The notes beneath the pieces were generated by a model. It worked only from the letters and a program-made list of their open reading frames with translations, was not told where the DNA came from and did no database searches. Position numbers and translations under genes: made by a program. This document shows positions 1-44,707 of a DNA stretch of 44,707 nt, in pieces; position 1 is the stretch's first letter; the number at the start of each line of letters is the position of its first letter. Source of the stretch: Escherichia phage phiEco273; the sequence record PP786691.1. One strand, given 5' to 3'.

Positions 1-860
1 CCGTGGTGGAAAAATAGCGTGGTCTTGCCGTGCTGCACCATTTTGTAGACGTCCGGGGACGTATCCACATCGACGCGCGGCTCGTTCTCGTACAGCGTGT
101 TGAACATCTCAGCAAGCCAAATCATGCCCGACTCATCATGATTCCCCTGGACGATTAGCAGTTTGACTTTGTGGTGTTTTTGCAGCGCCAGTTCGACGAC
201 GTTGCGCACCATGCGAATCATGTAGCGGACCAACTTCTGGTATCGGGTGTCGGCGTCCAGTATGTGACCACTTGCCGGAGTGACAGCATCGAGGCTATCA
301 AAGTGGGCCATATCACCGAGGATATTAATTACGGCAGTGCCTGCGTCCGGGGCGCGTGCGAAGGCTTCGACAAACCAGCGGTAGAACAGGTCTTCGGCGA
401 TCGCCATATCCCAGTCTTCGCCAGTCTCCTCGCCCCATGCCAACATGCCCAGGTGGAAGTCTGACACGGTGTACAGGTTGAGCAAGTCGAGCGCCTGGAT
501 CGGTACTGGCGGGGCGTTTACTGGCGCTGCCGGTGTGATTTCGCTGTTCATACCCTCGACAACAGCGCGCATAGCTTCGAGTTGGCGCTCTTTGTCCTGC
601 TCAGTGATGACCCACGACATGACCTCTTCGCCATTGCCGCGTACCAGGGCCGATACGCGCTTAACACCGAAGCCATCGGCAACGCGCTTGCGGATTACAG
701 CGTCATTGCCGTGTCCAATGCCTTTTTTCGACAGGCGGGCTTTCCGCATGTAGACGTTTCGGAGGGATAAACCGTACTTCTTAGAAATCTCTTTCGATGT
801 AGCGCCGGATTGTAATTCAGCAATCAATTGCTCGTCTGTGATTTTAGTTTGCGGGTGCAT
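1..860 (-). CDS. Calcineurin-like metallophosphoesterase with N-terminal HTH-like region; N-terminal part (ORF runs off the window start and continues in frame at 44425..44707)
   Basis: ATG at 860-858 preceded by AGGAAG; hand translation gives DFHLG, GDMAHFD, GNHD, FHHG motifs; no stop before coordinate 1. Absent from the ORF track because it is open at the window edge. Confidence 0.7.
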   Translation of the reverse strand, partial: MHPQTKITDEQLIAELQSGATSKEISKKYGLSLRNVYMRKARLSKKGIGHGNDAVIRKRVADGFGVKRVSALVRGNGEEVMSWVITEQDKERQLEAMRAVVEGMNSEITPAAPVNAPPVPIQALDLLNLYTVSDFHLGMLAWGEETGEDWDMAIAEDLFYRWFVEAFARAPDAGTAVINILGDMAHFDSLDAVTPASGHILDADTRYQKLVRYMIRMVRNVVELALQKHHKVKLLIVQGNHDESGMIWLAEMFNTLYENEPRVDVDTSPDVYKMVQHGKTTLFFHH

Positions 861-956
861 AATTACTTCCTGATTATGGGGCCAGGGACAATATATCACG
901 GGACTTATCGAGGCGGGCAATAAAAAGCCCGGAATTAACCGGGCTTGATTGTTTAC

Positions 957-1121
957 GTCACGGGGTCAGATTCTTCCTGTGGTGGCGGGCTAGGCAGCTT
1001 CGCGTCAAAGACGCCCGCATGGCTGATAGTGTCCGCGATGATAGCGCGTGCGCCAGGATCTTCGGTTTTAGCCAGCGCGGCGAGCGCGTCAGCGTTATGA
1101 TCAAGAATGCTTTTTAACATA
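957..1121 (-). CDS. small hypothetical protein (54 aa)
   Basis: ATG at 1121-1119 with GAGGT 9 nt upstream; fills the gap between endolysin and phosphoesterase genes; below the ORF-track size cutoff. Confidence 0.3.
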
Positions 1122-3305: not shown

Positions 3306-3575
3306 TCATTTGCTCAGTCTCCAGTGTTTTCCTGCCCGCTCAATGGCAGGCTTCCGGCGTAATGTAATACGAACACCCATTGGTTGCAAGGAAGTCCGCA
3401 CATAGAATCCGTGCTTCGCTGCGAACTGGCGCAAGTAGCGGGTCTGCGTTAATGGCTTCACATCGTCGCGATAACTCCAGAACACAGAATCGCCCTCATT
3501 CGCATTCTCAGCCCATATTCGTATGCAATGCAGGCTAATGCTCCAGGAAAGCCGTTTTGCGCGTCTGCGGTCCAT
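3306..3575 (-). CDS. hypothetical protein
   Basis: 89-aa ORF in operon context. Confidence 0.35.
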   Translation of the reverse strand: MDRRRAKRLSWSISLHCIRIWAENANEGDSVFWSYRDDVKPLTQTRYLRQFAAKHGFYVRTSLQPMGVRITLRRKPAIERAGKHWRLSK

Positions 3576-3584
3576 TTTACCCCC

Positions 3585-3890
3585 TTATTTCGCAAGCTGG
3601 GCGAATAGCTCGCGCTGGGCTTTAATCCGGGCGACGTTTGTCACTGCCGTCTCACCGATCCCGAAGCGATACGCCAGGCGCTCGCGGGCAAAAGCCATCG
3701 CATATTCGCAGATTGCCACGCGCAGCGGTTCCAGTTCGTCCAGGCTGGCAAACATATCATCGAACGCGTGCATGATTCCCTGCTGGGCCAGGATGACAAC
3801 CTGGCGCGCGTCGTCTGCGTTGCCGTCTGTGTGCTTCGCTTCATACAGCTTCGCCACCGCCATTGTGTAATTCCAGATTAAAGCTCTCAT
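3585..3890 (-). CDS. hypothetical protein
   Basis: 101-aa ORF; ATG at 3890 preceded by GAGGA and by a TATATTGGTTGCACACCAACA element also found upstream of the 38330 gene. Confidence 0.5.
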   Translation of the reverse strand: MRALIWNYTMAVAKLYEAKHTDGNADDARQVVILAQQGIMHAFDDMFASLDELEPLRVAICEYAMAFARERLAYRFGIGETAVTNVARIKAQRELFAQLAK

Positions 3891-4105
3891 CGTTCAGTCC
3901 TCATGTTGGTGTGCAACCAATATAGCAGGGTGCTGGGGCGGGCGCAACCAATATTAATCACGCGTATGAAAAGTTGATCGCTATCTGCTGAAACTGCAAA
4001 CTGCATTTTTCACCCACCATTCTGCAACTCGCATTGGTTGCCTAGTTCATCGACGACCGCAATTTACATCATGTTGCCGTGCATTATGCAATCCAGGATT
4101 TTATG

Positions 4106-4290
4106 CAGTCTCAGACGAGGGGGGTGCCAGACCCCCCGTCTAGTCTGAAAGACTGGGGTGCTGTCCCGCTGTCCCGCTCCTCGCCAGGCCGCGTCATCCG
4201 GGGCGGGACAAGGGTGCTGTCCCGCTTTGTCCCGCCCCTGGTCTGTCCCGCTTTTTGTCCCGCTTAGTTTATGCAGTTTTATTGCATAAC
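4106..4290. repeat. Repeat element copy 1: imperfect GC hairpin (GACGAGGGGGG...CCCCCCGTC) followed by 6 direct and 1 inverted copy of GTCCCGC and TTATGCA(G/A)T motifs
   Basis: Direct reading; about 85 percent identical over ~185 bp to 32399-32585 in the same orientation. Confidence 0.8.
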
Positions 4291-4369
4291 TATTCACTAT
4301 ATTTACACTACACGGCAACCAATACGACCGCCTAAAAGCACGCAAAATGGCAACCAATGCGCGCAAAAT

Positions 4370-4600
4370 TTAATCTTTTAAATCGTCATCGGTCGCTGAA
4401 AGCGTGATGGGGATATCCGATTTGATGACCAAATTAGACGACCCATAGATGGCCCCGGTGTGCGGATCGGTATAGAAACCTATCACTCCGCGCTCCACCA
4501 TATCGTCGATTGCCTTCGTCGAAGTGCCACCTTTTGCCAGCCCAGCCTGGCGGACAATTGCCGATTTACTGAATCCAGTATGGTCCGGGTTGTCTTCCAT
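4370..4600 (-). CDS. hypothetical protein (76 aa from internal ATG overlapping primase stop)
   Basis: ORF 4370..4627; ATG at 4600 overlaps upstream stop by one base, suggesting translational coupling. Confidence 0.4.
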   Translation of the reverse strand: MEDNPDHTGFSKSAIVRQAGLAKGGTSTKAIDDMVERGVIGFYTDPHTGAIYGSSNLVIKSDIPITLSATDDDLKD

Positions 4601-6633
4601 CAGTTTTTCCAGTGCCGCATAAAGCACTTTCTCTTTTCGTTGCGCGGTCCGGCGGTGTTCTCTTCCTTAACCGCGGCCTTGCCTGCCGCCTTCGCCTGTT
4701 CAATAGCGAACGGTGCCAGGGCAACCGGTACGAGGTAGAGAGTCTCGTCGCGTGGCGTGGAGGCAATTGGCTTGACGTCCCATCCGGCAACCACGTCGCC
4801 GAAGTCTGGCCCGGTGCTGGTGGACTGGTGCGCCTCGAACGCTTCTGACTTGCGGAGATCTACCTTAACCTTGCACTTGAGCAGGACGAAGCCACGCGGC
4901 GCTTGCTTGATGCCGTTACGTGACTTCTCATGATACAGGTTCAATTGTCCGGGCTGGTTGTCGTCCGGCTGTTCCAGGAAGAACGCAGAATCGACAGCAC
5001 CATGCAGCGCGCCGGACCCGCGTGGCGTTCTGCTGCCGTTTGCACCTTTAGCCGGGTGGTGGATGACTCCCGCACTACCACCTGTATTTTCCGCGATGGC
5101 CTTCAGCGCTTTGACCACTTCACCCATATCGCTGGCGTTGTTCTCGTCGAACGGTTTAGCATCCGCGGACCGCAACGCAACAGTCTGGTTTAGTGAGTCG
5201 AACGCCACCAGGCCAACCGGTTCGCCGTTAGCGGTGCGGTTGATAAAGCTGATAACTTCGCGCAAGCCTGATTTGCTGGTGATATCCCAGCCGCGTGACT
5301 GCAGGTCTATAATGTGCAGCTTGTCCAGGTCGTGCTCATATTTAATCTGCAATGCTTCTTTACGCTGGTTGGAGGCTTCGCCACCTTCCGCATCGAAATA
5401 GAAGCAATGAGACTGGACGACCTTCGCACCGCCAAACGGAATACCGGCGGCAACCGCTCCCATCTGGCCCAGCACATAGAAAGACTTACCGATATTCGAC
5501 TCGCCAGCCATGTACCAGGTCGATTTAAAGTTAATCAACCCCTCGATAATCGGGTCGTGCTTACTGAACAGCGCAACCGGCTCGTTATCCAGATCCGCAT
5601 CGGTGCACACGCCGTATTCTTCGCCGTCGCCAACCGCATCAACGATATGTTCATAGCACGATTCCACTTCTTCGTCGTCCAGCCCCGGAAGGATGGCGGC
5701 GATTTGCTTACGGGACATATTGTGTGGCTCGACGTTCAGGTGATCCGGGATCCCGATAAGACGTAGCGCCAGGTGCTGGTGTCTGTTCAGTTCCGAGCAA
5801 CACTCGTTACCGGTGTGCATACACTTGAAACGGATCTCGCCATCCTTGACCATGATAGCCGTCGACCCTTCGCCGCTGTGCAGATGTTCGTTCGGGCACG
5901 GCACTTCATAACCGCGACCGGAAGATAACTCCTCGAATCCTGCCTGGAAGCACCAGTCCAGAATACCGTCTGCCACTGCGTCGTCACCCTGGGTAAGCTC
6001 GCGGCGTACTTCCTCTTTTTCCACCCCCAGCTTGTCAGCCAGGCGGAGCAGACGACGGACGCGGGCGCGCTTGCCATAGTGGCACTTAATAACAGACTGC
6101 TGGTGTGGCAGGTACATCAGGCGGTTTGTGTCTTTCGTGCAATCGTCGAAGTCCACATCTGACAGACCCAGTTGGTGTAATAGTGCATACTGGACGCGGC
6201 CCAGGTCTTCAGCCGGTACAGGCTTGTCAGTGAGTACCAGGAATCGAGCGCAACGCGTGCCGCCTTTCAGTGGGTGACGGTCGCCGGTTGTGGTGTGAAA
6301 TACGTGTTCCAGCCCCGCGTCAATGAACGCCTTACGGCAGCGGCGTAGGGTGCGGGTGTCGGTACGGTCAATATCGAAGAACAGGATCGAGCGGTCCACC
6401 GCACTGGTCTTACGACGCAATCCGTCACTGGTATACGCCACGATGCCGTCGGCCTTACGCTTGCGGCGCGCATACTCGGCTTTATCTTCCGTCTTGTTGA
6501 TATGCACCGAGGAGATTTCTTTCGCATCTTTGATAAATTCGAAAAATTCATCGGTGGTCATCTGGAAGTTTTCCGCCCTGGCTTTTTCGCCTTTTTTAGC
6601 GGGTCTTGTAACAGCGAATTTAATTAAGCTCAT
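4600..6633 (-). CDS. DNA primase/helicase (N-terminal primase-polymerase-like domain, C-terminal RecA/DnaB-like P-loop NTPase)
   Basis: 677 aa; Walker A GESNIGKS in C-terminal half; N-terminal region with acidic FFDIDRTD motif resembling prim-pol domains; AAGG RBS. Confidence 0.7.
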   Translation of the reverse strand: MSLIKFAVTRPAKKGEKARAENFQMTTDEFFEFIKDAKEISSVHINKTEDKAEYARRKRKADGIVAYTSDGLRRKTSAVDRSILFFDIDRTDTRTLRRCRKAFIDAGLEHVFHTTTGDRHPLKGGTRCARFLVLTDKPVPAEDLGRVQYALLHQLGLSDVDFDDCTKDTNRLMYLPHQQSVIKCHYGKRARVRRLLRLADKLGVEKEEVRRELTQGDDAVADGILDWCFQAGFEELSSGRGYEVPCPNEHLHSGEGSTAIMVKDGEIRFKCMHTGNECCSELNRHQHLALRLIGIPDHLNVEPHNMSRKQIAAILPGLDDEEVESCYEHIVDAVGDGEEYGVCTDADLDNEPVALFSKHDPIIEGLINFKSTWYMAGESNIGKSFYVLGQMGAVAAGIPFGGAKVVQSHCFYFDAEGGEASNQRKEALQIKYEHDLDKLHIIDLQSRGWDITSKSGLREVISFINRTANGEPVGLVAFDSLNQTVALRSADAKPFDENNASDMGEVVKALKAIAENTGGSAGVIHHPAKGANGSRTPRGSGALHGAVDSAFFLEQPDDNQPGQLNLYHEKSRNGIKQAPRGFVLLKCKVKVDLRKSEAFEAHQSTSTGPDFGDVVAGWDVKPIASTPRDETLYLVPVALAPFAIEQAKAAGKAAVKEENTAGPRNEKRKCFMRHWKN

Positions 6634-6643
6634 TGCCGTGGCC

Positions 6644-6973
6644 TTACTTCGAAGTTTTGTTATTGCGTACCCAGGAGCGCACGGTGCTCTGGTTAATCCC
6701 TGTCAACTCCGCGATCATCGCCCATGACTTTCCCTCGGCGCGCAAACGGATAACCTGCTTTTTGTATTCTTCCATTTCCTCATTGTGCTTCTGCAGCTTG
6801 CTCGCCGCCGTGCCGTTCAGCAATTCCAGCCTGGCGCGTAATTCTTTTTCTACACTGCGCAGGCGCTCGACCTCAAACAGCACCGCCCCAACGGCATCGG
6901 TATAAGCCCATGACCGGCTTGTTTCACTGCTAACAGTCTTCGTTAACATTTCGATTGCGTCGTTTACATTCAT
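6644..6973 (-). CDS. HTH DNA-binding protein, candidate transcriptional regulator
   Basis: 109 aa, coiled-coil middle, C-terminal HTH-like segment (KSWAMIAELTGINQSTVRSWV); first gene of leftward operon, directly downstream of a palindromic site. Confidence 0.55.
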   Translation of the reverse strand: MNVNDAIEMLTKTVSSETSRSWAYTDAVGAVLFEVERLRSVEKELRARLELLNGTAASKLQKHNEEMEEYKKQVIRLRAEGKSWAMIAELTGINQSTVRSWVRNNKTSK

Positions 6974-7375: not shown

Positions 7376-7894
7376 ATGTTTGAACAAATCGTAAACCTGA
7401 TTACTCGCGGCGTAGTAGCACTGGAAACCATCGCTAAGCATTATGAAACCGTTGGCGCTGCCGTTGGTAAGCCGGAAGACAAGAAGCCGTCTAAGGCCAA
7501 AAAAGAAGTCGTAGAAGATGACGACGATGAAACCGAAGACGAAAAACCGGCGAAAACCAAAAAAGCACCGGCTAAAGGTAAGGCCAAAAAAGAAGTCGTA
7601 GAAGATGACGACGATGAAGAAGCCGAAGACGAAAAACCGGCGAAGGGTAAAAAAGCACCGGCGAAAGGCAAAGGCAAGAAAGATGCCGATCCGCTGGCAG
7701 AGATGCGCGACGAGATCAAACAGTATGCCGCTATTATCGCTGGTGGTGACGACGACGATGCCAACGACGAATTCGACGACCTGCTGGAATCGTTCGAGAT
7801 CAAATCAATCGCCAAGCTGGAAGATGACGACGTCGAAGACTTCCACAAAGATCTTAAAGAAATCGTCGAAACTTATTTCGAACTGGAAGATTAA
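7376..7894 (+). CDS. highly charged acidic/basic repeat protein (172 aa), function unknown
   Basis: First ORF of rightward operon; internal 87-bp tandem duplication (7495-7581 / 7582-7668) encoding KAKKEVVEDDDDExEDEKPAKxKKAPAKG; followed by hairpin terminator. Confidence 0.65.
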   Translation: MFEQIVNLITRGVVALETIAKHYETVGAAVGKPEDKKPSKAKKEVVEDDDDETEDEKPAKTKKAPAKGKAKKEVVEDDDDEEAEDEKPAKGKKAPAKGKGKKDADPLAEMRDEIKQYAAIIAGGDDDDANDEFDDLLESFEIKSIAKLEDDDVEDFHKDLKEIVETYFELED

Positions 7895-10137: not shown

Positions 10138-10920
10138 ATGGCTAAAGTCAACCTGAAAAATGTGCGCGTATGTTTCCTTAAAATTTGGGAACGTGATACC
10201 CCTAAACAGGATGGACAAAAACCGGCATACCGCGCCGTGATTCTTCTTGATAAAGAAGATCCGCAGGTGGACAAAGTGGAAGCGGCAGCGCGCGCAGTGC
10301 TCACCGACAAGCTGAAATCCGAGAAGAATGCCGATAAGTGGATGGACCGCCACTACGCCCAGGATTCTAAGGAATGCGCAGTACGCGACGGTGACGAGCG
10401 CGACGAAGTAACCGAAGAATTCGAAGGCATGTTGTACATCAACGCCAAATCGTTCAAACAGCCAAACATTCAAACGTCACTCGGCGAGAAGCAGACCGAA
10501 CAGGGTCTGACCGTAGAAGGCGACGAAATCGAAGGCCAGGAGATCTACTCCGGTTGTTATTGCAATGTGTCCCTCGATATCTGGGCGTGGAACAATACCA
10601 ACGGCAAGGGACTCGGGGCTGGTTTGCTGGGGCTGCGATTCCGTGACGACGGCGAAGCCTTCGGCGGTGGCGGATCTTCTTGCTCAGACGAGGACCTGGG
10701 CGACGATGACGAAGATGAAAGCCCGCGCAAGTCCAAAAAGTCAAAACGTCGTGATGACGATGACGAAGATGACAAGCCGCGCAAGTCCAAAAAGTCCAAG
10801 CGCCGCGATGACGACGACGATGAGGAAGATGAAAAACCTCGCAAACGTCGTAAGCCACGCGATGACGAAGATGAGGACGACGACGAAGACGAAGCGCCAC
10901 GCAAACGTCGCCGCCGTTAA
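10138..10920 (+). CDS. ssDNA-binding/annealing protein, T7 gp2.5-like (DUF2815-like) with alternating acidic/basic C-terminal repeats
   Basis: ATG at 10138 with GAGGA RBS; N-terminus MAKVNLKNVRVCFLKIWER resembles gp2.5/DUF2815; C-terminal repeats DDDDEDDKPRKSKKSKRR x3-4. Confidence 0.55.
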   Translation: MAKVNLKNVRVCFLKIWERDTPKQDGQKPAYRAVILLDKEDPQVDKVEAAARAVLTDKLKSEKNADKWMDRHYAQDSKECAVRDGDERDEVTEEFEGMLYINAKSFKQPNIQTSLGEKQTEQGLTVEGDEIEGQEIYSGCYCNVSLDIWAWNNTNGKGLGAGLLGLRFRDDGEAFGGGGSSCSDEDLGDDDEDESPRKSKKSKRRDDDDEDDKPRKSKKSKRRDDDDDEEDEKPRKRRKPRDDEDEDDDEDEAPRKRRRR

Positions 10921-17849: not shown

Positions 17850-18316
17850 AATTACTTATTTGCGATTTGGATGGAGTTATTAACGGTTCAAGCGATGCGC
17901 GCGCCGACCTGGTGCCGGGCATAAAAACTAAATCCACCTTTTGGGCGAAGTGGCACAAAGCGCATATACGCGAAGATCTGAACATGGATATGCTGCCGCT
18001 GCTGACCATGTACAAAGAGCAAGGCTTCGAGATCGCGTATCTGACAAACCGGCAGCGAGAATGCTGGGACACCACAGCCGAGCAATTGGAAGTATTCCCT
18101 AGAGGCCGGTTGTTTATGCGCCACATGATGGACGACACCCCGCCACCAGAGTTTAAGGCGTGCGCCGTGTTCAAAATGGTCTGCTACGCGGACGTGTCGG
18201 AACTGGTCATCATTGAAGACTGTCCGAAGAACATCGCGGCAATTCGTCGGGCGTGCAGCGATTTGGTCCCGAAAATTTATGCGATAAACGTTGCAAAATT
18301 CACTTGCAACCAATAG
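17846..18316 (+). CDS. HAD-superfamily phosphatase (nucleotidase / polynucleotide 3'-phosphatase-like)
   Basis: N-terminal motif LICDLDGVI (DxDG[TV]); 156 aa. Confidence 0.5.
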   Translation: MKLLICDLDGVINGSSDARADLVPGIKTKSTFWAKWHKAHIREDLNMDMLPLLTMYKEQGFEIAYLTNRQRECWDTTAEQLEVFPRGRLFMRHMMDDTPPPEFKACAVFKMVCYADVSELVIIEDCPKNIAAIRRACSDLVPKIYAINVAKFTCNQ

Positions 18317-18380
18317 GTTGGTTGCAGTATCTTAATCACGTCGGGGGCAATATCGCCCCATCGCTAAAAAGGGTAATACT

Positions 18381-28264: not shown

Positions 28265-29053
28265 CTACCCCTTAATTAATCTGGACCCCGGAAAGCCGCC
28301 GAAGTCCAGCACCGCCGCTTTCGGGTCCGCAAGCCCTTGCCCAAATCGAAGATAACAGTCGGACAAACAGCCGCCGCATCGGTCCATATTCATCGCAATG
28401 ACTTCATTACCTCGCTCGTCGTAATACTTGATGCCGGGTTTCGCAAGGTTCCAGGTGCACCCGTCCCCGCTGGCGTACTTCCCGTTGAGCGCCCATTCGC
28501 ACATATTCATGATTTGGCGACGGGGGACGACCTGCCCTTCCATATCTGCGGGTGAGGATAGCGCGAAGGTGATCTGCTTACCCGGATTTCGGCCCACCTG
28601 GGAGTCGATGTAATACTCCTGAACTCGTTTCTGCGTCGGGTCTGGATCTGTCCCGTTATCCAGGAACTTCGCGAACGTATCTATGATCTCAACCTTCGCG
28701 CCCAGTAGCTGGTCATGGTTCAGCGACAGCCTGGTGATTATTCCGCCAATATCGACGATGGTTAGCTGCGGTTCTGCCGCCGTTGACGTGGAGAAGTTGA
28801 GTCCAGACAGCTCGAAGGGCCAGAATTCGAACTCCTGCCCGCCGAAGAAGATGGATTTTGGCTTCAGCTTATCCTCGTCACCCCCAGCGGCAGCAATATC
28901 CTCGGCAGTGTGCGGAATAAAGCAGTAGTGAAAATAGTGATGCCCCGCTCCGATCGCGCCGTCGCCCGGTTCCACGTCCTGAGCGTCAATGTGAATCAGG
29001 CGAACGCGTCCTGATGGGTCAAAGCGCGTCGCTTCACGATAGAGTTTATTCAT
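28265..29053 (-). CDS. minor tail protein, lambda L-like
   Basis: 262 aa; C-terminal Cys cluster (CEWALNGKYASGDGCTW...CGGCLSDC) as in gpL; synteny. Confidence 0.65.
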   Translation of the reverse strand: MNKLYREATRFDPSGRVRLIHIDAQDVEPGDGAIGAGHHYFHYCFIPHTAEDIAAAGGDEDKLKPKSIFFGGQEFEFWPFELSGLNFSTSTAAEPQLTIVDIGGIITRLSLNHDQLLGAKVEIIDTFAKFLDNGTDPDPTQKRVQEYYIDSQVGRNPGKQITFALSSPADMEGQVVPRRQIMNMCEWALNGKYASGDGCTWNLAKPGIKYYDERGNEVIAMNMDRCGGCLSDCYLRFGQGLADPKAAVLDFGGFPGSRLIKG

Positions 29054-29649
29054 CTTACGAATCCAATAGCAGTCTTAAGGGTGGCGGATACCGTTGCCGT
29101 GTAGTGCCCGTTGTCCGTGTACGACAAGCTCGAACGCTCGACCACGAATAAACCTGTTTCGCCATCCGGTGCTGTGACAATGAACGGTTTTACAAAGTGC
29201 CCGCGAAGGAAGTTGTAAACCAGTTTAGGGTCGCACCATTTGTCAGTAGTCAGTCCGACGAATTGCACGGGGAACTGTTTCGTTTCTGCGTTCGGGCCGT
29301 CCGCGATGTTCTGTCCGTAGCCATTACCGAATTGCAATTCCTCAGACCGGAAAGCTAACTGCACGTCGCCACCGCCCTGCAATTGCATGTGCCAGTAATA
29401 GGGCCATTCGTTTGATCGCGGGTCGTGTGCTTCGATTAGCTCATATACCGCACCGGATTTCGTTGGACCTACCCAGTTATCTTTCAGCGTAATGACCGTG
29501 TTCGAGTTGAATGCTGCAATTTTGCCGGTGTAGTCGTTGCCGTCGATGCGGGCGAATACGCGTACCTTCCCGATCTCGCTAAGGAACGCCGTCCCCACGC
29601 CCGTAACGGTCTTACTCCCCTTAGTCAATGTGATTGTACCTTGTGACAT
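29050..29649 (-). CDS. minor tail protein (lambda M position)
   Basis: 199 aa; synteny between tape measure and L-like gene. Confidence 0.5.
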   Translation of the reverse strand: MSQGTITLTKGSKTVTGVGTAFLSEIGKVRVFARIDGNDYTGKIAAFNSNTVITLKDNWVGPTKSGAVYELIEAHDPRSNEWPYYWHMQLQGGGDVQLAFRSEELQFGNGYGQNIADGPNAETKQFPVQFVGLTTDKWCDPKLVYNFLRGHFVKPFIVTAPDGETGLFVVERSSLSYTDNGHYTATVSATLKTAIGFVR

Positions 29650-29685: not shown

Positions 29686-32328
29686 TCATCGTTTGTAAAG
29701 TACACCACCTGGTTTAGTCGCTTTCACGATCTCGGACTTCACCGCCTCGGTGATTTGCTTGCCGAACGCCTGCGCGGTACGGGGATCCGGCCCGCTGACA
29801 CTGGTATCCGTTTTACCGGTCCCCGTGTAAACGTTAGTCGTCACGACCATACCACCGCCTGCGCCAGACGCGGCAACGCCCAGTTTCCCGTCCGGCCCGC
29901 GCTTCAGCGGCATGATGGCCTCGGGGCCAGCCTCGCCCATCAATCCTGCGCCCTTAGCGAACGCCTGGACGCCATAACTGAAAAAGGTAGGCTGACTTAC
30001 CACTTTCCCCGAATAGGCCGCGAGATTGCCTCCTGCGTACGCTCCGCCGTCCGCATTCTTAGTTAGGCCAGAGAAGATAGCGCCGAACAATCCGTTTTTG
30101 CCGCCGTCGCCACCGAAAGCGCTAACGATCGACTTGAAAGCCTGCGAGGTAGCCAGCTTGATTAATTCGCTAAGGATGGACTTAACCATATCCTTTGCGT
30201 TCAGCTTGCCAGTCTCGAAAAACTCGTTCATCGTGTCTTGCATAGCGCTGAACGTGAATTTCGTTAGCGTCGCCATCTGCGTATATCCGTTACCCATTTC
30301 ATCCACGCTATCCTTAAGCCCGCGACTGAATCCATCCCATAGCGAGGCGTTAGCGCCGGTCTGCGCCTCCTGCACTTCGCGCAGCTTAGACACCGCCTTG
30401 TCGATATCGGCATCGTTCGCGCCAACCCGCTTCAGGCGGTCAATTAGCTGCAATTCTTCGCGCAGGTTTGCCGCTTCGCGAGTAGAAAGCGCATAACCAG
30501 CGGCGGTAGCTTTTAGTTCGGCGTTCTGGTTCTTAACGAAGGCGTCGATCTGCGCGTGCGCCTTAACCTGCTTCTCTTTCGCATCCAGCAATTTGGCTTC
30601 TTCGACGATCTGCTCGCGGACTTCCTTCACGCGCCCGAACTCGACTAATTGCTGCTTCTCTGCTGCCGTCAGCGCCCTTTCTTTGCTTGCGGCAATTAAC
30701 TGCTCATTGTCGGCGATCAGCTTGTTTAAGGCCGCTTGAGCGCGTTGAGTGCGGGTCTGTGTAGATGCGTTGGCTTCGATCTGCTTGCCGGATTCTCGAA
30801 GCTGGGCCAGTTCACTCCGTGCTACTTCCAGCATTTTCATACCGGCGTCCACGCGAACAGCCGCGGCCTTCTTCGGGGCGGGGTCTTTGTAGCGCTCGTT
30901 GACCTGCTTAACCGCCTCGGCTAGTTCTTTCTCATCAATAACGCCGCGCTTATTCAGCAAATTGAGGCGGGCGATCTCGTCGGCGCGCTTCTTAGCGTTG
31001 GTGGCGTATTCCTTCTCGAACGCGGCGCGGTCACGGGCAGTGCGGTTGGCCTCCTCGTTCGCCTTTGCGGATTCGTCTGCGGCGCGGGCGTTGTCTCGCT
31101 CCGCACGGTTACGCAGGGTGAGCGACGCCACCACTTTTTCCTGGGCGACCAGTTCGCTGTAAAGCATGTTAATACGTGCTTTCTGCGCTTCAGTCATTAC
31201 CCCACCGGCAGCGTTTACCGCTTTCATCTCGGCATAATAAGCCGTGGTCATGCGCTGCAATGACTCACGCGCTTTCATCTCTGACTCATTCGAGGACTGC
31301 GCACGTCCAACATCCAGGATGGCATCCCACATAGATTTAGCTGCCGATGTGACGGTGTTCATCGACCGCTCAAGCGTACCCATGTTGGACTTGATTTCAT
31401 TGGTCATGCTGGTGAACGACGCAGCGGCTGTTTTGTTAGCCAACGCAACTGCGTCTGTCTCACGACCCGCATCAACGAGCGACTGTACCTGCTGGATCTG
31501 CGCTTCGTTTACGACGTGATACTTATCCGCCAGCGCACGCAGTCCGCCTACCGGGTCGGTAGACAGCTTAGCCACCGCCGCGACTACATCCTCGATCGGC
31601 TGGCTGGACACCTTCGCGAAGTCATTCACTACCTTAGCCAATGCGCCGAAGTCACCACCCGCTTTCACACCAGCCGCCGCCAGCGCCTGGATTGTGTCAC
31701 GCGTCTTGCGGAATGATCCGCCCATGCGCTCGGCGTTCTCGGATAGCACCAGGATCTGGTTAGCTGTGAGGCCGGAGATATTGCCGGACAGCGCCAGCGT
31801 CTTATTAAGCGCGGCTACCTGGTTCTCTGCCCGTGACGTAATTGCCACGCCCACGCCTAACGTCGCCGTTACGGCAGCAAGTCCGATCCCTACTGGGCCG
31901 AGGAAGCCCGCAACATAACGCAGCGTGTTACCCAGTCCGCCAAATGCGCCGGTTAGCTGTGGTAGCTGCTGAAGCATGACGCGGTGCACCGGCATACCCA
32001 TCTCAAGCGTAACCGCGATATCCTGTAACTGGAATGCCGCGTTCCGCGATGCGAATCCCAGGTTTTTGGTTGACATGCCTAGTCGGCTGGCGAGTCGCTC
32101 TTGTTTCGTCATGCCGTCGGCGGCACGCTGAGATTCAGTCGCTAACTTTTCCATTCCGCCAGCGGCGTCACCCGTGACCTTTTTCGACTTGCCGAGGGTG
32201 TCGTTTAATTTTTTGACTTTCTGTTCTGTGTTCTCGGATTTCTGCGCAAATGTGTCCAGCACAGTATTAGCCGTTTTAATTTGCGCGACGTCCGCCTTGA
32301 GCGTGATGCCCGCTGCCTGATCTGCCAT
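29686..32328 (-). CDS. tail tape measure protein
   Basis: ORF 29686..32367; probable start ATG 32328 with AAGGGGGG RBS; long Ala/Lys/Glu-rich coiled-coil protein in canonical position. Confidence 0.75.
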   Translation of the reverse strand: MADQAAGITLKADVAQIKTANTVLDTFAQKSENTEQKVKKLNDTLGKSKKVTGDAAGGMEKLATESQRAADGMTKQERLASRLGMSTKNLGFASRNAAFQLQDIAVTLEMGMPVHRVMLQQLPQLTGAFGGLGNTLRYVAGFLGPVGIGLAAVTATLGVGVAITSRAENQVAALNKTLALSGNISGLTANQILVLSENAERMGGSFRKTRDTIQALAAAGVKAGGDFGALAKVVNDFAKVSSQPIEDVVAAVAKLSTDPVGGLRALADKYHVVNEAQIQQVQSLVDAGRETDAVALANKTAAASFTSMTNEIKSNMGTLERSMNTVTSAAKSMWDAILDVGRAQSSNESEMKARESLQRMTTAYYAEMKAVNAAGGVMTEAQKARINMLYSELVAQEKVVASLTLRNRAERDNARAADESAKANEEANRTARDRAAFEKEYATNAKKRADEIARLNLLNKRGVIDEKELAEAVKQVNERYKDPAPKKAAAVRVDAGMKMLEVARSELAQLRESGKQIEANASTQTRTQRAQAALNKLIADNEQLIAASKERALTAAEKQQLVEFGRVKEVREQIVEEAKLLDAKEKQVKAHAQIDAFVKNQNAELKATAAGYALSTREAANLREELQLIDRLKRVGANDADIDKAVSKLREVQEAQTGANASLWDGFSRGLKDSVDEMGNGYTQMATLTKFTFSAMQDTMNEFFETGKLNAKDMVKSILSELIKLATSQAFKSIVSAFGGDGGKNGLFGAIFSGLTKNADGGAYAGGNLAAYSGKVVSQPTFFSYGVQAFAKGAGLMGEAGPEAIMPLKRGPDGKLGVAASGAGGGMVVTTNVYTGTGKTDTSVSGPDPRTAQAFGKQITEAVKSEIVKATKPGGVLYKR

Positions 32329-32398
32329 TATGCAGTCCCCCCTTTTTATGCAGTTGCCGTCGGTCATTGTATCAGCGAATTTAAAACAAACCTTATTC

Positions 32399-32712
32399 AG
32401 TCTCAGACGAGGGGGGCCATTGACCCCCGTCTAGTCTGAAAGACTGGGCTTTGTCCCGCCTGTCCCGATCGGCTAAAACCCGCGGCAGCACTGGCGGGGA
32501 CAGGGGTGCTGTCCCGCTTTGTCCCGCCTCATTCTGTCCCGCTTTTTGTCCCGCTTACTTTATGCAATAAAACTGAATAGACATTCACATTTTGGGGGCG
32601 GGACAGATCGGGACAGCACCCCTGTCCCGCTTTTAATTTATGCAATTGTGGTGAGTAAATATGCAGTTTTAGAGGTGCGGGACAAAACGGGACGTCCCGC
32701 CTGTCCCGCTCC
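32399..32712. repeat. Repeat element copy 2 (GC hairpin + GTCCCGC array, extended by additional direct/inverted heptamers and TTATGCA motifs) filling the GT-chaperone / tape-measure intergenic gap
   Basis: Direct reading; ~15 heptamer copies; first ~185 bp about 85 percent identical to 4106-4290. Confidence 0.8.
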
Positions 32713-32713
32713 G

Positions 32714-33037
32714 TTATGCGGGGTTCTGCCGCGCCATTTCATCCAGCGCAACGCGTTCCATTAGCTTGATATCTTTAAACGCACGTTGCGCGTTTTCGAT
32801 GCCGTGCATATTAAATAACCATTCCAGTACGCCGTAGTCGATGCCGTATGCGCCACCGAATCCGGTACGCCATTGCGTGGCGCAATCCGTGAAGACTGCG
32901 ACTACCTTCGCATTGTCGGGCCATAGTGCAACCGGCGGGCAAACATCTTCGGGGGCCGCACCCCATAAACTTGCGGCTAAATCTTCGGAGGGTGGCGGCG
33001 GGCCATAAAAGCGTCGCGCCGCCTCAATTAGTTTTTT
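32714..33037 (-). CDS. tail assembly chaperone -1 frameshift extension (GT-type fusion product)
   Basis: Slippery heptamer A_AAA_AAC (33037-33031) immediately before the G-like stop; the -1 frame stays open for ~105 codons to TAA at 32716-32714 with no internal start signal. Confidence 0.6.
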   Translation of the reverse strand, partial: KKLIEAARRFYGPPPPSEDLAASLWGAAPEDVCPPVALWPDNAKVVAVFTDCATQWRTGFGGAYGIDYGVLEWLFNMHGIENAQRAFKDIKLMERVALDEMARQNPA

Positions 33038-33390
33038 TCACGCAGCCCCATCAGTTCGAGATAGTACGACGTGTGGAACACGCCGAACGCGCGCGGGTAG
33101 TTGACCACCAGGCGGCGGACGTTCTCCGCGTTAAATTCGTCCGGCAGATTCCAGCCTTCAGCGACGTGCATTATGGCCTCGACCATAACGTTAAAGCCGT
33201 CAGGGTCATTGTCGTCATACTCCGACAACTTGCGCTCAGTATCCTGCATGGTCTGCGAAAATTCGTCGATCGGGCGGTGGCGCACGGTAAACGTCATTTT
33301 CCCCGGTTCGTTTTCACCGGGGCGCGGGATCTCAATCGGCAGCTTAAAGGTCGGCTTAGGGTCAAGTGTGAAGAGTGGTGCTTTTGCCAT
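33028..33390 (-). CDS. tail assembly chaperone (lambda G-like)
   Basis: ATG 33390 with GGAGA RBS; acidic ~120-aa protein between major tail and tape measure genes. Confidence 0.6.
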   Translation of the reverse strand: MAKAPLFTLDPKPTFKLPIEIPRPGENEPGKMTFTVRHRPIDEFSQTMQDTERKLSEYDDNDPDGFNVMVEAIMHVAEGWNLPDEFNAENVRRLVVNYPRAFGVFHTSYYLELMGLREKN

Positions 33391-33405
33391 TGTAGTATTC
33401 TCCAA

Positions 33406-37479: not shown

Positions 37480-38181
37480 TTACTCGTCGCCCATTTTAGC
37501 GATGATTTCACCGGCCTGTTTCGTTAAGTCAGTGATACCGAAGCTGTGGCCCATAGTGATTTTCGACTTCACATCTTCGACAACCTGCGTCGGTTTGCTA
37601 GGCGCACCACCGGCTGGCGTGCCAGCCAGGACGGATGCAAAATCGGCGTTATTACGGAACTCTTTTTCAAGCTCTTCCATAGTCAGCGCGGACGGTTTGC
37701 CATCCTGCAAAACACGCACTTTCAAGCTGCCGTCTTCGCCGTCTTCCAGCGTGAGGCGGTCCATAACGTGGCGTTGCATAATGCCAGCATTCTTACCGAA
37801 TAACTTCGAGGCCAGGTCTTTGGCAGCGCTGCCGATGGTTAGATCGTGGATCTGCTTGCGGTAGGCTTCGATTTTTCCCGATGTGTCTGCTTCGTGTTTC
37901 GCAAACTTATCTTTCCAGGACTTGTCGATCGCTTCGAGGTCGCCATTTTTGCGCGCGGCGGCTTCCTCTTTCTCTTTCGCAAGGCGCTCGGCTTCGGCGC
38001 GACGTTCGGCTTCGGCTTTCTTCTCGCTAACCAGCTTCGCGTTATTGTCTTTCAGACCCTTAATCTCCGACTGTACTTCTTCGGCGGTCATGAACGTTGA
38101 TTTATACCCGTCACCATCGGCAACAAAAAGCGCCTTCATACCTTCCGGCAACGCGTCATATTCTGCTTTAGTAAGTTTCAT
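37480..38181 (-). CDS. scaffolding protein
   Basis: ATG 38181 with GGGGGA RBS; acidic, coiled-coil rich (KAEAERRAEAERLAKEKEEAAARK), immediately upstream of capsid gene. Confidence 0.55.
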   Translation of the reverse strand: MKLTKAEYDALPEGMKALFVADGDGYKSTFMTAEEVQSEIKGLKDNNAKLVSEKKAEAERRAEAERLAKEKEEAAARKNGDLEAIDKSWKDKFAKHEADTSGKIEAYRKQIHDLTIGSAAKDLASKLFGKNAGIMQRHVMDRLTLEDGEDGSLKVRVLQDGKPSALTMEELEKEFRNNADFASVLAGTPAGGAPSKPTQVVEDVKSKITMGHSFGITDLTKQAGEIIAKMGDE

Positions 38182-38329
38182 GCTATCCCCCTGGGATTGT
38201 GGCAAAGCGGGCCACCCGCTTGACTTCACGCCTTAATATTATCAGCGATAAAAATAATCGCAAAATTCGCTTGCAATCCGAGTATTGGTTGCATTATATT
38301 GGTTGCACACCAACAACGAGGACACAAAA

Positions 38330-42161: not shown

Positions 42162-43547
42162 TTAGTAGAAGTCTACAGTTGGAACAACGGCGATCGGACG
42201 AATCACAGGGAACAAGTGCGCAATAGGGTAGCCAGCCGCGTCATTCATGTGGTCCACACCGGCAGTTTTATCCGGCTCGCCTTTCTTCAGGTCGTACACC
42301 TGCTGTTCCAGACATTTCGCTAGTGTAGGGCATTTATCCAGGTTGACAAAATACTGGCGCACGCCCTTCGAGTTGCACATCATCGTATTCATCGCGATAA
42401 GTCTGTCTTTCACAGGCGGGTTAACGCTGTCGTATTCCACCTCGAAGCCCGCGTCTTCCAGTTGCGCGATATCAGACGAGGATGCGTTAACAGTCTTACG
42501 AGACTTGCCACTGCTATCCGGGTAAACGACAACCTTACCGGCAGCGCAATGATCTGGGTAGCGCTCCTCGATCGCCTCAATCATAGCCGGTGTGTCAAAC
42601 AGGTCCACAAATTCATCCACCGCGTGAATCTCGTCGCGGAACTCCTTGTTCTCGGTGGTACGCTGCCGTCTTACATACACGACCGCCGCCATTTTCGTGA
42701 CGTTAAAGTCCATACCGATAATCAGCGTGTCTTCCGGCTGCACTTCTTCGGTGCTTGCGTTCTCCTCACGGTTAAACATCTTGTATACCGCGCCCGACGT
42801 AAGGTTAACAAACATACCGTTCAGGTACGCATCGATCAGGTTAGCCGGGTACTGACTGCGAAGCGTGTCGATAAAGTCTGCCGGTAAATGGTGGTTGTCG
42901 GTGGTCTTCGCCCGGATCAGGCGCTTTTGGCTATCCTTCTCCACCTCGAAGATTTGATACATCGCCCGGAAGCCTTCCGGCGTGGACACGATGACAAACT
43001 GGCGGACAAGACCTGCACGCAGACGACCGAGCAATTTGTGATAAGCCGCCATTGCGACGTCTTGCTTCGTGGTGTCGAACTCGTCGGCAACAATCCACGC
43101 GGCGTTAACCCCGATTAGGCGGGTGTAGTTCTCCATTGACTCGCAGATAACGCGGGTCCATTTTCCTTTCACCAGAACGCTATAGATCTTGTCCTGCTTG
43201 TTGAACTTCCACCGGAAGCCCGCCTCGTCGAAAGCCTTCTCCAGTTCCGGATACATGATTTTAACCAGGAGTGGGATAGTCGGCTCGGTCACGATGCCGT
43301 CATGCCCCGGGTTCAGTGTCAGAAGCTGGATGACCTTTCTCGCAGCGACCCACGACTTTCCACCACCGAAGCCGGAACACAGGCCGAGGATTTTAGTCTT
43401 CGTGTCGCGCAGTAGTTCCACCTGGTGCGGAAGGCAATCAGGCTGGTACAGGCGGACGGCCTGCGCAACGCGCGTCGGGCGTGGTGGTCGGTTGCGCTTT
43501 GCGATCGCGCGCTCCAGTGCGCGGTGTTCTGCCGCATAGTTACGCAT
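42162..43547 (-). CDS. terminase large subunit
   Basis: 461 aa; Walker A-like GLCSGFGGGKS, Walker B-like AWIVADEFD, C-terminal nuclease-like region. Confidence 0.8.
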   Translation of the reverse strand: MRNYAAEHRALERAIAKRNRPPRPTRVAQAVRLYQPDCLPHQVELLRDTKTKILGLCSGFGGGKSWVAARKVIQLLTLNPGHDGIVTEPTIPLLVKIMYPELEKAFDEAGFRWKFNKQDKIYSVLVKGKWTRVICESMENYTRLIGVNAAWIVADEFDTTKQDVAMAAYHKLLGRLRAGLVRQFVIVSTPEGFRAMYQIFEVEKDSQKRLIRAKTTDNHHLPADFIDTLRSQYPANLIDAYLNGMFVNLTSGAVYKMFNREENASTEEVQPEDTLIIGMDFNVTKMAAVVYVRRQRTTENKEFRDEIHAVDEFVDLFDTPAMIEAIEERYPDHCAAGKVVVYPDSSGKSRKTVNASSSDIAQLEDAGFEVEYDSVNPPVKDRLIAMNTMMCNSKGVRQYFVNLDKCPTLAKCLEQQVYDLKKGEPDKTAGVDHMNDAAGYPIAHLFPVIRPIAVVPTVDFY

Positions 43548-44098
43548 TATTCGCCCTGGCCTTTTCCGGTAGGTTCGACAACGACGTCGCCGTTATCATC
43601 TTCGTCGTCATCCAGTGGGATATCGTCGCGTACGCCGTGGTTTGCTTTAAGCAGGAACGTAGCGAAGCCCGCCGCGATGGTCACGCCGCCAGCTTCCATC
43701 AGGAAAGTTTTCTGCAACTCCATTGCGTCAGCCATCGCCTCGGCGAACTCCTCATGTGCACGCGCCCAGCGGTACAGGCAGGCAACGCCCACACCGATTT
43801 CCGCGGCAAATCTGCCGAAGGTTGGCATTTTGTTGCGGGGAATTACTTGCGCAGCGCCTTTATCGGAGTAATTGACCTGCCAGGCGTCGGCGTCGGCAAA
43901 ATAGCGACGAAGCTGGTCGCAGTAAACAGATCGGTAGTCAGTAGGGCGTCCACATTTGCCGCCTTTACGGCGCTTTCCGTACTCGATTTCAGGTCCGAGA
44001 TTGGTATGCTCAGTTTGCTCGCCTGGTTTACGGCGCGGGGTTACTGCTACTCGTCCGTCCAGTTTGGCGCGTCGGCCCTTAACTTTGATTTCTGCCAT
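43547..44098 (-). CDS. terminase small subunit
   Basis: ORF 43547..44197; probable start ATG 44098; basic N-terminal DNA-binding-like region (GRPTDYRSVYCDQL...), acidic C-terminus; overlaps terL start. Confidence 0.55.
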   Translation of the reverse strand: MAEIKVKGRRAKLDGRVAVTPRRKPGEQTEHTNLGPEIEYGKRRKGGKCGRPTDYRSVYCDQLRRYFADADAWQVNYSDKGAAQVIPRNKMPTFGRFAAEIGVGVACLYRWARAHEEFAEAMADAMELQKTFLMEAGGVTIAAGFATFLLKANHGVRDDIPLDDDEDDNGDVVVEPTGKGQGE

Positions 44099-44168
44099 GA
44101 TATATGCCCTTTTGTTCATATGCGCCGACCATCGGCAACATAGGAGACGGCCCTGCCATCTAATGGGG

Positions 44169-44197
44169 ATTATAACAGGCACAAAAAAGCCCACCAA
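44169..44197 (-). promoter_or_regulatory. candidate late promoter: -35 TTGGTG (44197-44192), 17-bp spacer, extended -10 TGTTATAAT (44177-44169)
   Basis: Perfect TATAAT with TG extension read on minus strand upstream of terS. Confidence 0.4.
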
Positions 44198-44215: not shown

Positions 44216-44428
44216 CTAAACGGCGCGACCGTAGTATCGGGTTAACATGCTTTCTACTTCGCGTATTGCGCCTTCTGTGTAGCGTATTTGCGATAGTATC
44301 TCGATCCGTTCGCTGATAGACATGCCTACCGCCGCTGCCGTTCGTTCGAATCGGCGCAAGCCTTCGAGTTGTTTGCGTAATTCCTTCAGGCGTGTGGCCT
44401 GCGTGCTCATGAATACTTGTCTAATCAT
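44216..44428 (-). CDS. hypothetical protein (70 aa)
   Basis: ATG overlaps upstream stop (ATGA). Confidence 0.4.
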   Translation of the reverse strand: MIRQVFMSTQATRLKELRKQLEGLRRFERTAAAVGMSISERIEILSQIRYTEGAIREVESMLTRYYGRAV

Positions 44429-44707
44429 TTCAACATTTCCGGGCTAATGGTTAAGCGCGCTACTTCGCCGTAGTTGGCGCTATAGGTGATGACGTTTGCG
44501 CTGCGACCGGACATCCAACCACCACGACTGGCGTAGGCGTCTTTCGCTGCGAGCGTCCGGTGCTGTTCAACAATCATGTTGCGGGATTCTACAATCTTCT
44601 GGTGGTGCAAGTGGCCTACGTGCGCGTAGCTGTACTCACTGGCCCCGAAAGCCTGTCTGAATTTAGAAATCATGACGGTTTCGATAGCGTCAAAGCGCGC
44701 TTTATGC
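44425..44707 (-). CDS. Calcineurin-like metallophosphoesterase, C-terminal part (continuation of 1..860 across the window junction)
   Basis: Reading frame stays open to the last base of the window and is in phase with the ORF leaving coordinate 1 (...FFHHG|HKARFDAIETVMISKF...); contains GHLHH motif. Confidence 0.7.
   Translation of the reverse strand, partial: HKARFDAIETVMISKFRQAFGASEYSYAHVGHLHHQKIVESRNMIVEQHRTLAAKDAYASRGGWMSGRSANVITYSANYGEVARLTISPEMLK

Follow-up and report, generated by a model that had tools for sequence, protein, structure and literature searches.

Two repeat elements of Escherichia phage phiEco273 probably form an iteron-type origin system together with the neighbouring PrimPol-helicase

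The sequence of Escherichia phage phiEco273 (PP786691.1; 44,707 nucleotides, hereafter the window) contains an intergenic hub at positions 3891-4369, which holds the first of two copies of a repeat element; the second copy stands at 32353-32709. Our analysis indicates that the two elements probably constitute an iteron-type origin system, bound by the primase-polymerase (PrimPol)-helicase-winged-helix protein encoded next to the first copy, with the second copy as a further site resembling oriR of phage SPP1 or crr of P4. Several features by which origins are recognised in sequence are indeed found together here: locally over-represented repeats, adjacent AT-rich DNA, an adjacent initiator gene with a predicted DNA-binding domain, and co-variation of the repeats with that domain. 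On either side of the hub is a minus-strand feature, namely the helicase-primase stop codon and the beginning of a block of small genes and lysis genes that runs leftward. Copy 2 is placed between the tail assembly chaperone gene G/GT (33028..33405, with an extension ending near 32714) and the tape-measure gene, a junction which is contiguous in phage lambda, where the chaperone and tape-measure genes abut.

Each element has the same core, made of six direct repeats and one inverted repeat, a GC-rich hairpin of about 50 nt, an AT-rich stretch with a palindrome, and a box ACGGCAAC. The heptamer GTCCCGC occurs 20 times in the window against 9.2 expected, a count reached by none of 100 shuffled sequences, and 17 of these 20 copies lie in the two elements (seven in copy 1, ten in copy 2, three elsewhere). 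When 20 sites were placed at random, seven or more fell within 300 bp in none of 200,000 simulations, and no other 7-mers of the genome are as clustered as TGTCCCG and GTCCCGC. In copy 1, direct heptamers are found at 4163, 4171, 4219, 4229, 4245 and 4257 and an inverted one at 4203; the direct repeats follow each other at 8, about 48 (across the inverted copy), 10, 16 and 12 bp, and this pattern is identical in both elements. The parts of copy 1 are as follows.

4160 to 4263, plus strand: iteron array, with TGTCCCGC in direct orientation at 4162, 4170, 4218, 4228, 4244 and 4256; 29% AT
4203-4210: inverted repeat GCGGGACA, which makes GCGGGACA-N7-TGTCCCGC with the repeat that follows
4264 to 4312, no strand assigned: AT-rich segment (76% AT, against 45.5% for the genome), site of the palindrome TTATGCA-N7-TGCATAA (4269-4289) and of the box GTGAATAGTTATGCA
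4106 to 4155, no strand assigned: extended imperfect GC hairpin, CAGTCT..CAGAC..GGGGGG-loop-CCCCCC..GTCTG..AGACTG
4073 to 4109, minus strand: distal boxes of the duplicated unit, namely TTATGCAGT (4101), TTATGCAAT (4084), a -10-like CATAAT and ACGGCAAC (4073-4080, minus)

The stretch 4264-4312, which abuts the GC-rich array, shares the highest AT content of any 45-bp window in the genome and is a candidate DNA-unwinding element, a candidate site for a conserved factor, or both. TTATGCART is present nine times in the window (0.56 expected), with four copies in each element. The hairpin has a predicted DNA minimum free energy of -15.7 and -15.1 kcal/mol on the two strands (z -3.7 and -4.0), which none of 200 shuffles equalled. 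An earlier note on this DNA had described a non-coding gap with a hairpin at 4106-4152, six direct copies and one inverted copy of GTCCCGC, and repeated TTATGCA(G/A)T motifs, with the hairpin and array duplicated near 32399-32712. This description was borne out, the hairpin being extended to 4155 with folding superior to shuffles on both strands, and the duplication being recovered at 32353-32709; the heptamer excess also survived the shuffle test that the note had set. The hub is non-coding because relatives differ in it by 1-nt indels. Its coding potential, represented by an open reading frame (ORF) at 4064..4366, and by gp50 and gp51 of Shigella phage StarDew (2388-2868 of its locus), was therefore rejected, the conservation being motif-shaped and not codon-shaped. 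A by-eye reading of TTATGCA and GTGAATAG as DnaA or IHF sites gave at best DnaA boxes with two mismatches and was dropped as unsupported.

Copy 2 reproduces this arrangement and extends it. Positions 4073-4300 align with 32353-32590, with identical runs of 25-40 nt, and mean column identity is 74% over the aligned stretches 4040-4330 and 32320-32720. The twin hairpin at 32398-32447 is also more stable than shuffled sequences (z about -3.2). AT-rich spacers at 32556-32597 (69% AT) and 32630-32676 (70% AT) separate or flank the iteron groups and carry TTATGCAAT or ATATGCAGT. The features of copy 2 and of its downstream edge are listed below.

32353 to 32590, plus strand: core unit, with ACGGCAAC at 32353-32360 (minus), hairpin at 32398-32447 and TTATGCAAT at 32560; kept in 15 relatives
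32453, 32461 (one mismatch), 32497 (inverted, one mismatch), 32511, 32521, 32536 and 32548: iterons
32598 to 32709, no strand assigned: extension with two extra, converging iteron groups, at 32598-32630 and 32677-32709
32366 to 32374, minus strand: extended -10 match TGATACAAT; the tape-measure gene starts about 30 nt downstream (ATG at 32328, or at 32367 according to the ORF)
32328-32354, minus strand: two ACTGCATAA boxes, which follow TGATACAAT and flank the Shine-Dalgarno sequence

The match TGATACAAT is invariant in 15 relatives; it is a pattern match, one of three in the genome against 1.9 expected.

Matches to the hub and its flanks came from 158 phage records, nearly all of them Escherichia and Shigella phages of the genus Dhillonvirus (SO-1/HK578-like), and the closest match to the hub region is StarDew (96%). 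None of the 158 Dhillonvirus records lacks either element, and the two positions are the same throughout; the note had named absence from close relatives as grounds for doubting the element. Sixteen copy-1 regions (helicase identity from 99% down to 69%) and 15 copy-2 regions were aligned. The repeat core CGGGACA (equivalent to TGTCCCG), the arms of TTATGCA-N7-TGCATAA, both hairpin stems and the box GTGAATAGTTATGCA are invariant among these relatives. The hairpin loop (at least six variants in 31 sequences) and the 7-nt spacer of the palindrome are free to vary, and the elements as a whole are better conserved than neighbouring third-codon positions. With regard to the palindrome, which reads TTATGCA-ATAAAAC-TGCATAA here, some Dhillonviruses have the central 7 nt reverse-complemented (GTTTTAT); the unit has been flipped in the course of evolution, as occurs at inverted repeats that form hairpins or cruciforms.

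The gene that ends at the edge of the hub provides a candidate binder for the repeats.

4600 to 6633, minus strand: helicase-primase, an ORF of 677 amino acids with an N-terminal AEP (archaeo-eukaryotic primase) primase-polymerase, a Zn motif and a RepA-like (AAA_25) helicase
4370 to 4627, minus strand: C-terminal winged-helix domain, the candidate iteron binder, present as a separate ORF of 85 amino acids in this window

Pfam AAA_25 was detected in the 677-residue ORF with an E value of 2e-19. A model of the N-terminal 331 residues (pLDDT, the predicted local distance difference test, 86) has as its best PDB fold match the AEP domain of the cyanophage S-2L PrimPol (6zp9; E 2e-5, probability 1.00); it also matches other AEP enzymes, with RepB' absent from the fold matches. 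A sequence search of the PDB gave a single, marginal match to RepA (1g8y, E 0.53). The AlphaFold model of the 85-residue ORF (pLDDT 80) consists of helices H1-H2-H3 and a beta wing, and its top PDB matches in Foldseek are all winged-helix DNA binders (MarR, IclR, the ORC2 C-terminus and linker histone). The order primase, helicase and C-terminal winged helix in one chain is confirmed by Pfam and by two structure models. The winged helix is a separate ORF in the window because of a 1-bp deletion, a T4 run at 4633-4636 standing where relatives have T5. StarDew, SO-1 and all other relatives examined have one intact gene of 754 amino acids, so that the split is private to this sequence, the result either of a sequencing error or of a recent mutation. 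The statement of the earlier note that nothing in the annotated genes explains the repeats is therefore no longer tenable, since the gene ending at 4370 encodes a PrimPol-helicase whose last 85 or so residues form a predicted winged helix, and the repeats change with that domain in relatives. Its broader proposal of a protein-binding array is retained for iterons and narrowed to this winged helix, whereas its packaging and partition variants are unlikely, as weighed below.

The co-variation of repeat and domain emerges from comparison with more distant phages. About 330 homologues of the enzyme were retrieved, and those at 45-85% identity come from many phage lineages. In all lineages inspected, a non-coding gap comes after the gene (290-900 bp in those contigs that continue beyond it). 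Every such gap has a short repeat of its own, present in both orientations and nearly restricted to it, which amounts to about ten repeat types in about ten lineages. These repeats are listed here by lineage.

Cornellvirus SP-031: GGGGAGA, seven of nine genomic copies in the gap
L101: TTGCGAGT
L102 and L109: GCTGCCAAC, five of five in the gap
L103: TTCCGCACA
L104 and L110: AGGGATA
L111: TCCGACA
L112: GTGGCA
L113: GGTGCC
Edwardsiella phage eiAU: CGCCCCG-type

Across these lineages, no part of the protein diverges more than the winged helix. Near-identical recognition helices go with the same repeat, as in L102 and L109 and in L104 and L110. The clearest case is that of SP-031 and L111, in which the small upstream helix-turn-helix (HTH) protein is 100% identical; identity is 90% over the enzyme up to its last 95 residues and only 53% within these 95. 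In the gap, each GGGGAGA is exchanged in register for (T)CCGACA, the inverted copy included, and the boxes between the repeats are identical. The repeats therefore follow the winged helix, and neither the upstream regulator nor general divergence. Other parts of the gap are common to several lineages, namely a box GTGAATAGTTATGC, an A/T-rich hexamer followed by CACGGCARC, and the order of parts seen in Dhillonvirus; in all further lineages with a complete gap after the helicase gene, an equivalent of the hexamer with CACGGCARC is present. The box GTGAATAGTTATGCA is common to Dhillonvirus, Cornellvirus, L104, L110 and L111. Because TTATGCA and GTGAATAGTTATGCA are kept across genera while the iterons change, they probably bind a conserved factor of phage or host origin. 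Where a second cluster is present (Dhillonvirus, eiAU and L101), it has the same lineage-specific repeat as the first; it is located in the gap between GT and the tape-measure gene in Dhillonvirus and eiAU, and after a MuF-like head gene in L101. In the more distant Kagunavirus Schulenburg (L006), almost no gap follows the helicase gene, and all four genomic copies of GAGTGAG cluster in a divergent intergenic region (37979-38240), about 800 bp upstream of the helicase operon. This cluster may be the equivalent site.

From a mechanistic point of view, the C-terminal winged helix of the helicase-primase would bind the TGTCCCG repeats, and the six direct repeats may seat the six winged helices of one hexamer. 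Binding would take place next to the genome's most AT-rich stretch and to a GC hairpin able to extrude, and would melt the duplex for loading of the helicase. The first primer would next be laid by the fused primase, possibly at the conserved ACGGCARC box just past the hairpin, and extended by the Pol I-type polymerase that the phage encodes. The primary origin would be copy 1 (4073-4300), which directly follows the initiator gene. Copy 2 (32353-32709) may be a second origin or an auxiliary site bound by the initiator, on the models of SPP1 oriR and P4 crr; as it has its own extended -10 promoter match, the tape-measure and distal tail genes would remain expressed.

Several known replication systems have a comparable organisation. 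SPP1 is, like this phage, a lytic headful siphophage of about 44 kb with two separated, similarly organised sites, each combining direct repeats with an unwinding element rich in AT (PMC6316719). Its oriR sits in a non-coding insert that interrupts the order of late genes and has been proposed to stall forks and to trigger the switch from theta to sigma replication (PMC6316719). In SPP1 one initiator, gp38, binds both sites; here a shared binder is presumed, and the likeness is one of anatomy. The two systems also differ, in that gp38 is a separate organiser which works with the loader gp39 and the DnaB-type helicase gp40, with oriL inside gene 38, whereas the presumed binder here is a domain of a fused PrimPol-helicase, copy 1 lies downstream of the gene and not inside it, and the sequences are unrelated. 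The layout of a gp38-family initiator with oriL in its own gene is accordingly not matched here, a comparison made without a direct search for a gp38 homologue.

In the alpha protein of P4, a single polypeptide unites a primase and a hexameric helicase with a winged helix at the C-terminus and binds short origin repeats (PMC4234260, PMC2777425). The helicase-primase described here has the same three-part domain order. However, the primase of alpha is of the DnaG/Toprim type and its helicase of the SF3 type, against an AEP PrimPol and a RepA-like AAA_25 helicase in the present protein, and the repeats are unrelated; the two proteins are analogous, not homologous. P4 also reportedly requires in cis a second repeat cluster, crr, several kb away, as Ziegelin and Lanka are said to have found in 1995. 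P4 is moreover a plasmid-like satellite, in contrast to the 45-kb lytic phage considered here. In the IncQ plasmid RSF1010, oriV comprises iterons, AT-rich DNA and stem-loops which are exposed on unwinding and recognised by an AEP-type primase, with a helicase of the RepA family (PMC4234260). Iterons, AT-rich DNA and a hairpin are likewise combined here, and the helicase is RepA-like (Pfam AAA_25; weak PDB match 1g8y). RSF1010 nevertheless uses three separate proteins (RepC, RepA and RepB') and two hairpins on opposite strands (ssiA and ssiB), whereas one fused protein and one hairpin per element are found in this phage. In the archaeal plasmid pRN1, the origin lies immediately downstream of the ORF904 gene and needs a stem-loop, and its authors saw the same layout in some phages (PMC4234260). 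The succession of a small repressor, a gene for a prim/pol-helicase-winged-helix protein and a downstream origin, here a presumed one, with a stem-loop is shared; pRN1 differs by its SF3 helicase, a stem-loop of about 100 nt and the lack of iterons, whereas here iterons dominate and the hairpin is about 50 nt long. As for plasmids more generally, the element was found in none of them, so that they offer no evidence of a ready-made replicon; a single plasmid homologue covers most of the enzyme, in a 44-kb record which resembles a phage genome, and the remainder match the helicase domain alone.

A number of observations weigh against the origin interpretation. In Dhillonvirus, binding, unwinding and initiation are all inferred. 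The Foldseek matches of the winged helix reach a probability of 0.99 with weak E values (0.025 or more). The relation of helix to repeat is not one-to-one: L022 retains CGGGACA despite a changed helix, and L102 and L104 have similar helices with different repeats. The repeat spacing of 8-16 bp is shorter and less regular than that of classical phased iterons of about 20 bp. Covariation within the genus lends no support to the hairpin, as its stems never vary. A single compensatory case was found across genera, in eiAU, where, judged by eye from the sequence and not by folding, the outer stem of the hairpin between GT and the tape-measure gene has paired changes relative to that of Dhillonvirus. 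GC skew gives no origin signal, as it merely follows gene orientation. Cornellvirus has one cluster only, so that the second site is not universal. Lastly, promoter-like elements are present inside and at the edge of both elements; a transcriptional role is therefore not separable from an origin role, and the two may coexist.

This last point leads to the rival explanations, the first of which regards the elements as a transcription-control module. The hairpin would terminate or attenuate read-through, the heptamers would bind a phage regulator, for example the sigma-r4-like HTH protein (6644..6973) or an HTH-metallophosphatase, and a promoter past the hairpin would restart expression of the lysis genes (copy 1) or of the distal tail genes (copy 2). 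The second of these regulators, a protein of 380 amino acids with an N-terminal HTH fused to a calcineurin-like metallophosphatase, is encoded on the minus strand across the ends of the window (44428..44707 joined to 1..965), and its orthologue is labelled 'putative transcriptional regulator' in the SO-1 record. The location of both elements between co-directional genes on a long leftward transcription path agrees with such a module, as do the invariant TGATACAAT between hairpin and tape-measure start, a -10-like hexamer in the same place in copy 1, the promoter-side ATTGGTTGC boxes that flank copy 1, and the label 'terminator' which other annotators have given to the hairpin. However, neither strand has a T/U tract after the hairpin, and neither hairpin was reported by the terminator scan, so that the hairpin is not a canonical intrinsic terminator; a sigma-70 scan found no full promoter within either element, its sole match in the scanned stretches being in the neighbouring coding region. 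Seven to 14 sites would also be many for an activator. [quoted passage not shown] On balance, we regard a purely transcriptional module as unlikely. A cis-acting RNA on the leftward transcript, either a double stem-loop like the put sites of HK022 or a signal for mRNA stabilisation or processing, with repeats that are incidental or that serve as RNA-protein sites, would account for two similar copies on one long transcription path, for invariant stems with free loops and for a stable fold (z about -3.2 to -4). We nevertheless judge it very unlikely: no family of the Rfam 15 covariance models matched at the gathering threshold in the whole window, the sole match being a chance-level microRNA one in the hub, and hairpin stability is insignificant in some lineages (L102, z -0.4; SP-031, z -2.0), whereas the repeats are always present. 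The two orientations of the repeats and their co-variation with a DNA-binding domain fit sites in duplex DNA and not in RNA.

A selfish or neutral dispersed repeat without function for the phage, such as an insertion resembling a miniature inverted-repeat transposable element or a relic duplication, is suggested by two copies of a non-coding unit of about 230 bp with internal inverted repeats, at which assemblies often break. It is highly improbable given that 158 genomes have the two copies fixed at identical positions and conserved beyond neighbouring third-codon positions, that neither target-site duplications nor terminal inverted repeats were found, that there are only two copies and none in plasmids, and that the repeats are replaced in register in a related lineage. 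Irregular short repeats also resemble the parS site of P1 or the recognition arrays of TerS. A packaging (pac) or terminase-binding array or a partition-like centromere would fit the start of record UAE_MI-01, which begins exactly past the copy-2 hairpin. The phage is lytic, however, ParA and ParB genes were not found in it, and its P22-gp3-like TerS gene (43547..44197) is 39 kb from copy 1, so that the array is neither in nor next to terS. The window is, moreover, a complete circularly permuted genome, because the HTH-metallophosphatase gene crosses its ends, in agreement with the headful packaging of circularly permuted DNA described for the genus (PMC9022532). We thus consider this explanation extremely improbable. 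The ends of other records were looked at in the same light. Metagenomic contigs (loci L008, L094, L104, L112 and L113) and the records UAE_MI-01 and eiAU end within or beside the elements, four contigs stopping 110-215 nt past the helicase gene. Physical genome ends at copy 2 were rejected as the cause, as these ends are scattered, and assembly breaks at paralogous elements combined with headful packaging (PMC9022532) are preferred; the ends are most likely repeat-induced assembly breaks.

The octamer ACGGCARC, which stands at the distal end of both elements, has a wider distribution (examples are at 4073-4080, minus; 4312-4319, plus; 32353-32360, minus). It is present in 47 copies in the window, against 4.8 in shuffled sequences and 7.0 under a Markov-3 model, and its two forms are the second and third most frequent 8-mers of the window. 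The same two forms are the top two over-represented 8-mers in all four genera tested (Dhillonvirus, Cornellvirus, Kagunavirus and Eiauvirus). Density reaches 7.5-11.9 per 10 kb in this phage group, as compared with 0.6 in lambda (three in 48.5 kb) and 1.6 in E. coli K-12 (eight in 50 kb). On the favoured strand there is about one copy per 1.3 kb, with a bias to the coding strand of the structural genes, even in oppositely transcribed blocks. Codon usage was considered as the cause and found only partly sufficient: the reading frames are unequally used (19:10:2), but the enrichment is absent from lambda and E. coli. A further proposal, speculative and in our opinion rather unlikely, is that the octamer is a template or start signal of the PrimPol-helicase: the winged helix and iterons would set the start, the octamer would set the primer sites, and copy 2 would be a programmed fork barrier for the theta-to-sigma switch. 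If so, the strand bias of the octamer would mirror the direction of late rolling-circle synthesis.

A second motif, GCAACCAAT (or ATTGGTTGC), is found genome-wide, in 14 copies in the window against 0.5 expected. Five of these are in the hub, where the earlier note had reported sites of this type; their presence was confirmed, but they are not part of the duplicated unit. The sites are at 3379, 3913, 3944, 4033, 4315, 4350, 7162, 13691, 16633, 16650, 18306, 22215, 38284 and 38298. Those of the hub are arranged as follows.

4350-4358 and 4315-4323, minus strand: two ATTGGTTGC boxes just past the helicase stop, pointing into the array; kept in 16 relatives
3904 to 3952, minus strand: two ATTGGTTGC boxes, 31 nt apart, directly upstream of the Shine-Dalgarno sequence of gene 3585..3890
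4033-4041: box inverted relative to those at 3904..3952

The box at 4315-4323 overlaps the plus-strand ACGGCAAC (4312-4319). In most relatives the boxes at 3904..3952, which belong to the hub and lie outside the duplicated element, show a promoter-like TTGCAT-17 nt-TATATT. Most GCAACCAAT sites are located 20-200 nt upstream of start codons and oriented with transcription, and some are paired or palindromic (18305-18326). The 21-mer TATATTGGTTGCACACCAACA precedes two unrelated genes, at 3904-3924 and 38295-38315, the latter gene being on the plus strand. Related boxes are present in eiAU (21 copies of GCAACCAA) and in further lineages. From its placement, GCAACCAAT is probably a promoter or operator element, separate from the duplicated unit, and the sigma-r4-like HTH protein at 6644..6973 is a candidate for its binding. 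Phage TLS has 21-nt intergenic direct repeats that are possibly associated with promoters (PMC11447400). The TLS repeats and the present boxes are both promoter-side; they differ in sequence and phage family, and the boxes here are sometimes paired or palindromic.

The repeat regions themselves were already known, as the 2009 GenBank record of Sodalis phage SO-1 (GQ502199) annotates both orthologous elements, as 'region A' and 'region B', and records them as direct, inverted and palindromic repeats that are mutually similar. No analysis of these regions was found in the literature on Dhillonvirus, HK578, SO-1 or the heptamer, nor was a mapped replication origin for Dhillonvirus or its Guernseyvirinae relatives. 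As far as we could find, the functional assignment, the specificity swap between SP-031 and L111 and the family-wide pattern are undescribed. Dhillonviruses and their relatives in the Guernseyvirinae belong to the coliphages and Salmonella phages that are isolated most frequently, and they are candidates for therapy. If the origin interpretation is correct, the origin is located and the initiator named for several hundred sequenced phages, and about ten natural pairs of iteron and winged-helix specificity, including one near-isogenic swap, become available for the study of how initiator specificity evolves. It would also account for the 350-bp non-coding insert in an otherwise contiguous tail operon. 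In practical terms, short-read assemblies break at the two paralogous elements, in which ORFs also tend to be called spuriously, and they are sites to avoid or to exploit when these genomes are engineered.

Some other features of the window were noted. GC and AT skew switch at about 7 kb and about 19.5 kb, tracking gene orientation. AATTGCA/TGCAATT is present in six copies within 300 bp at 29261-29560, inside gene 29050..29649, out of ten in the genome, and SO-1 has a cluster of the same motif at the orthologous place (five of nine copies). Tandem coding repeats were also found on the plus strand at 7499-7678 and 10692-10910, in two early genes, with units of 90 nt and 54 nt; they are rich in GAC, GAA and AAA codons and correspond to acidic and basic low-complexity segments of the proteins.

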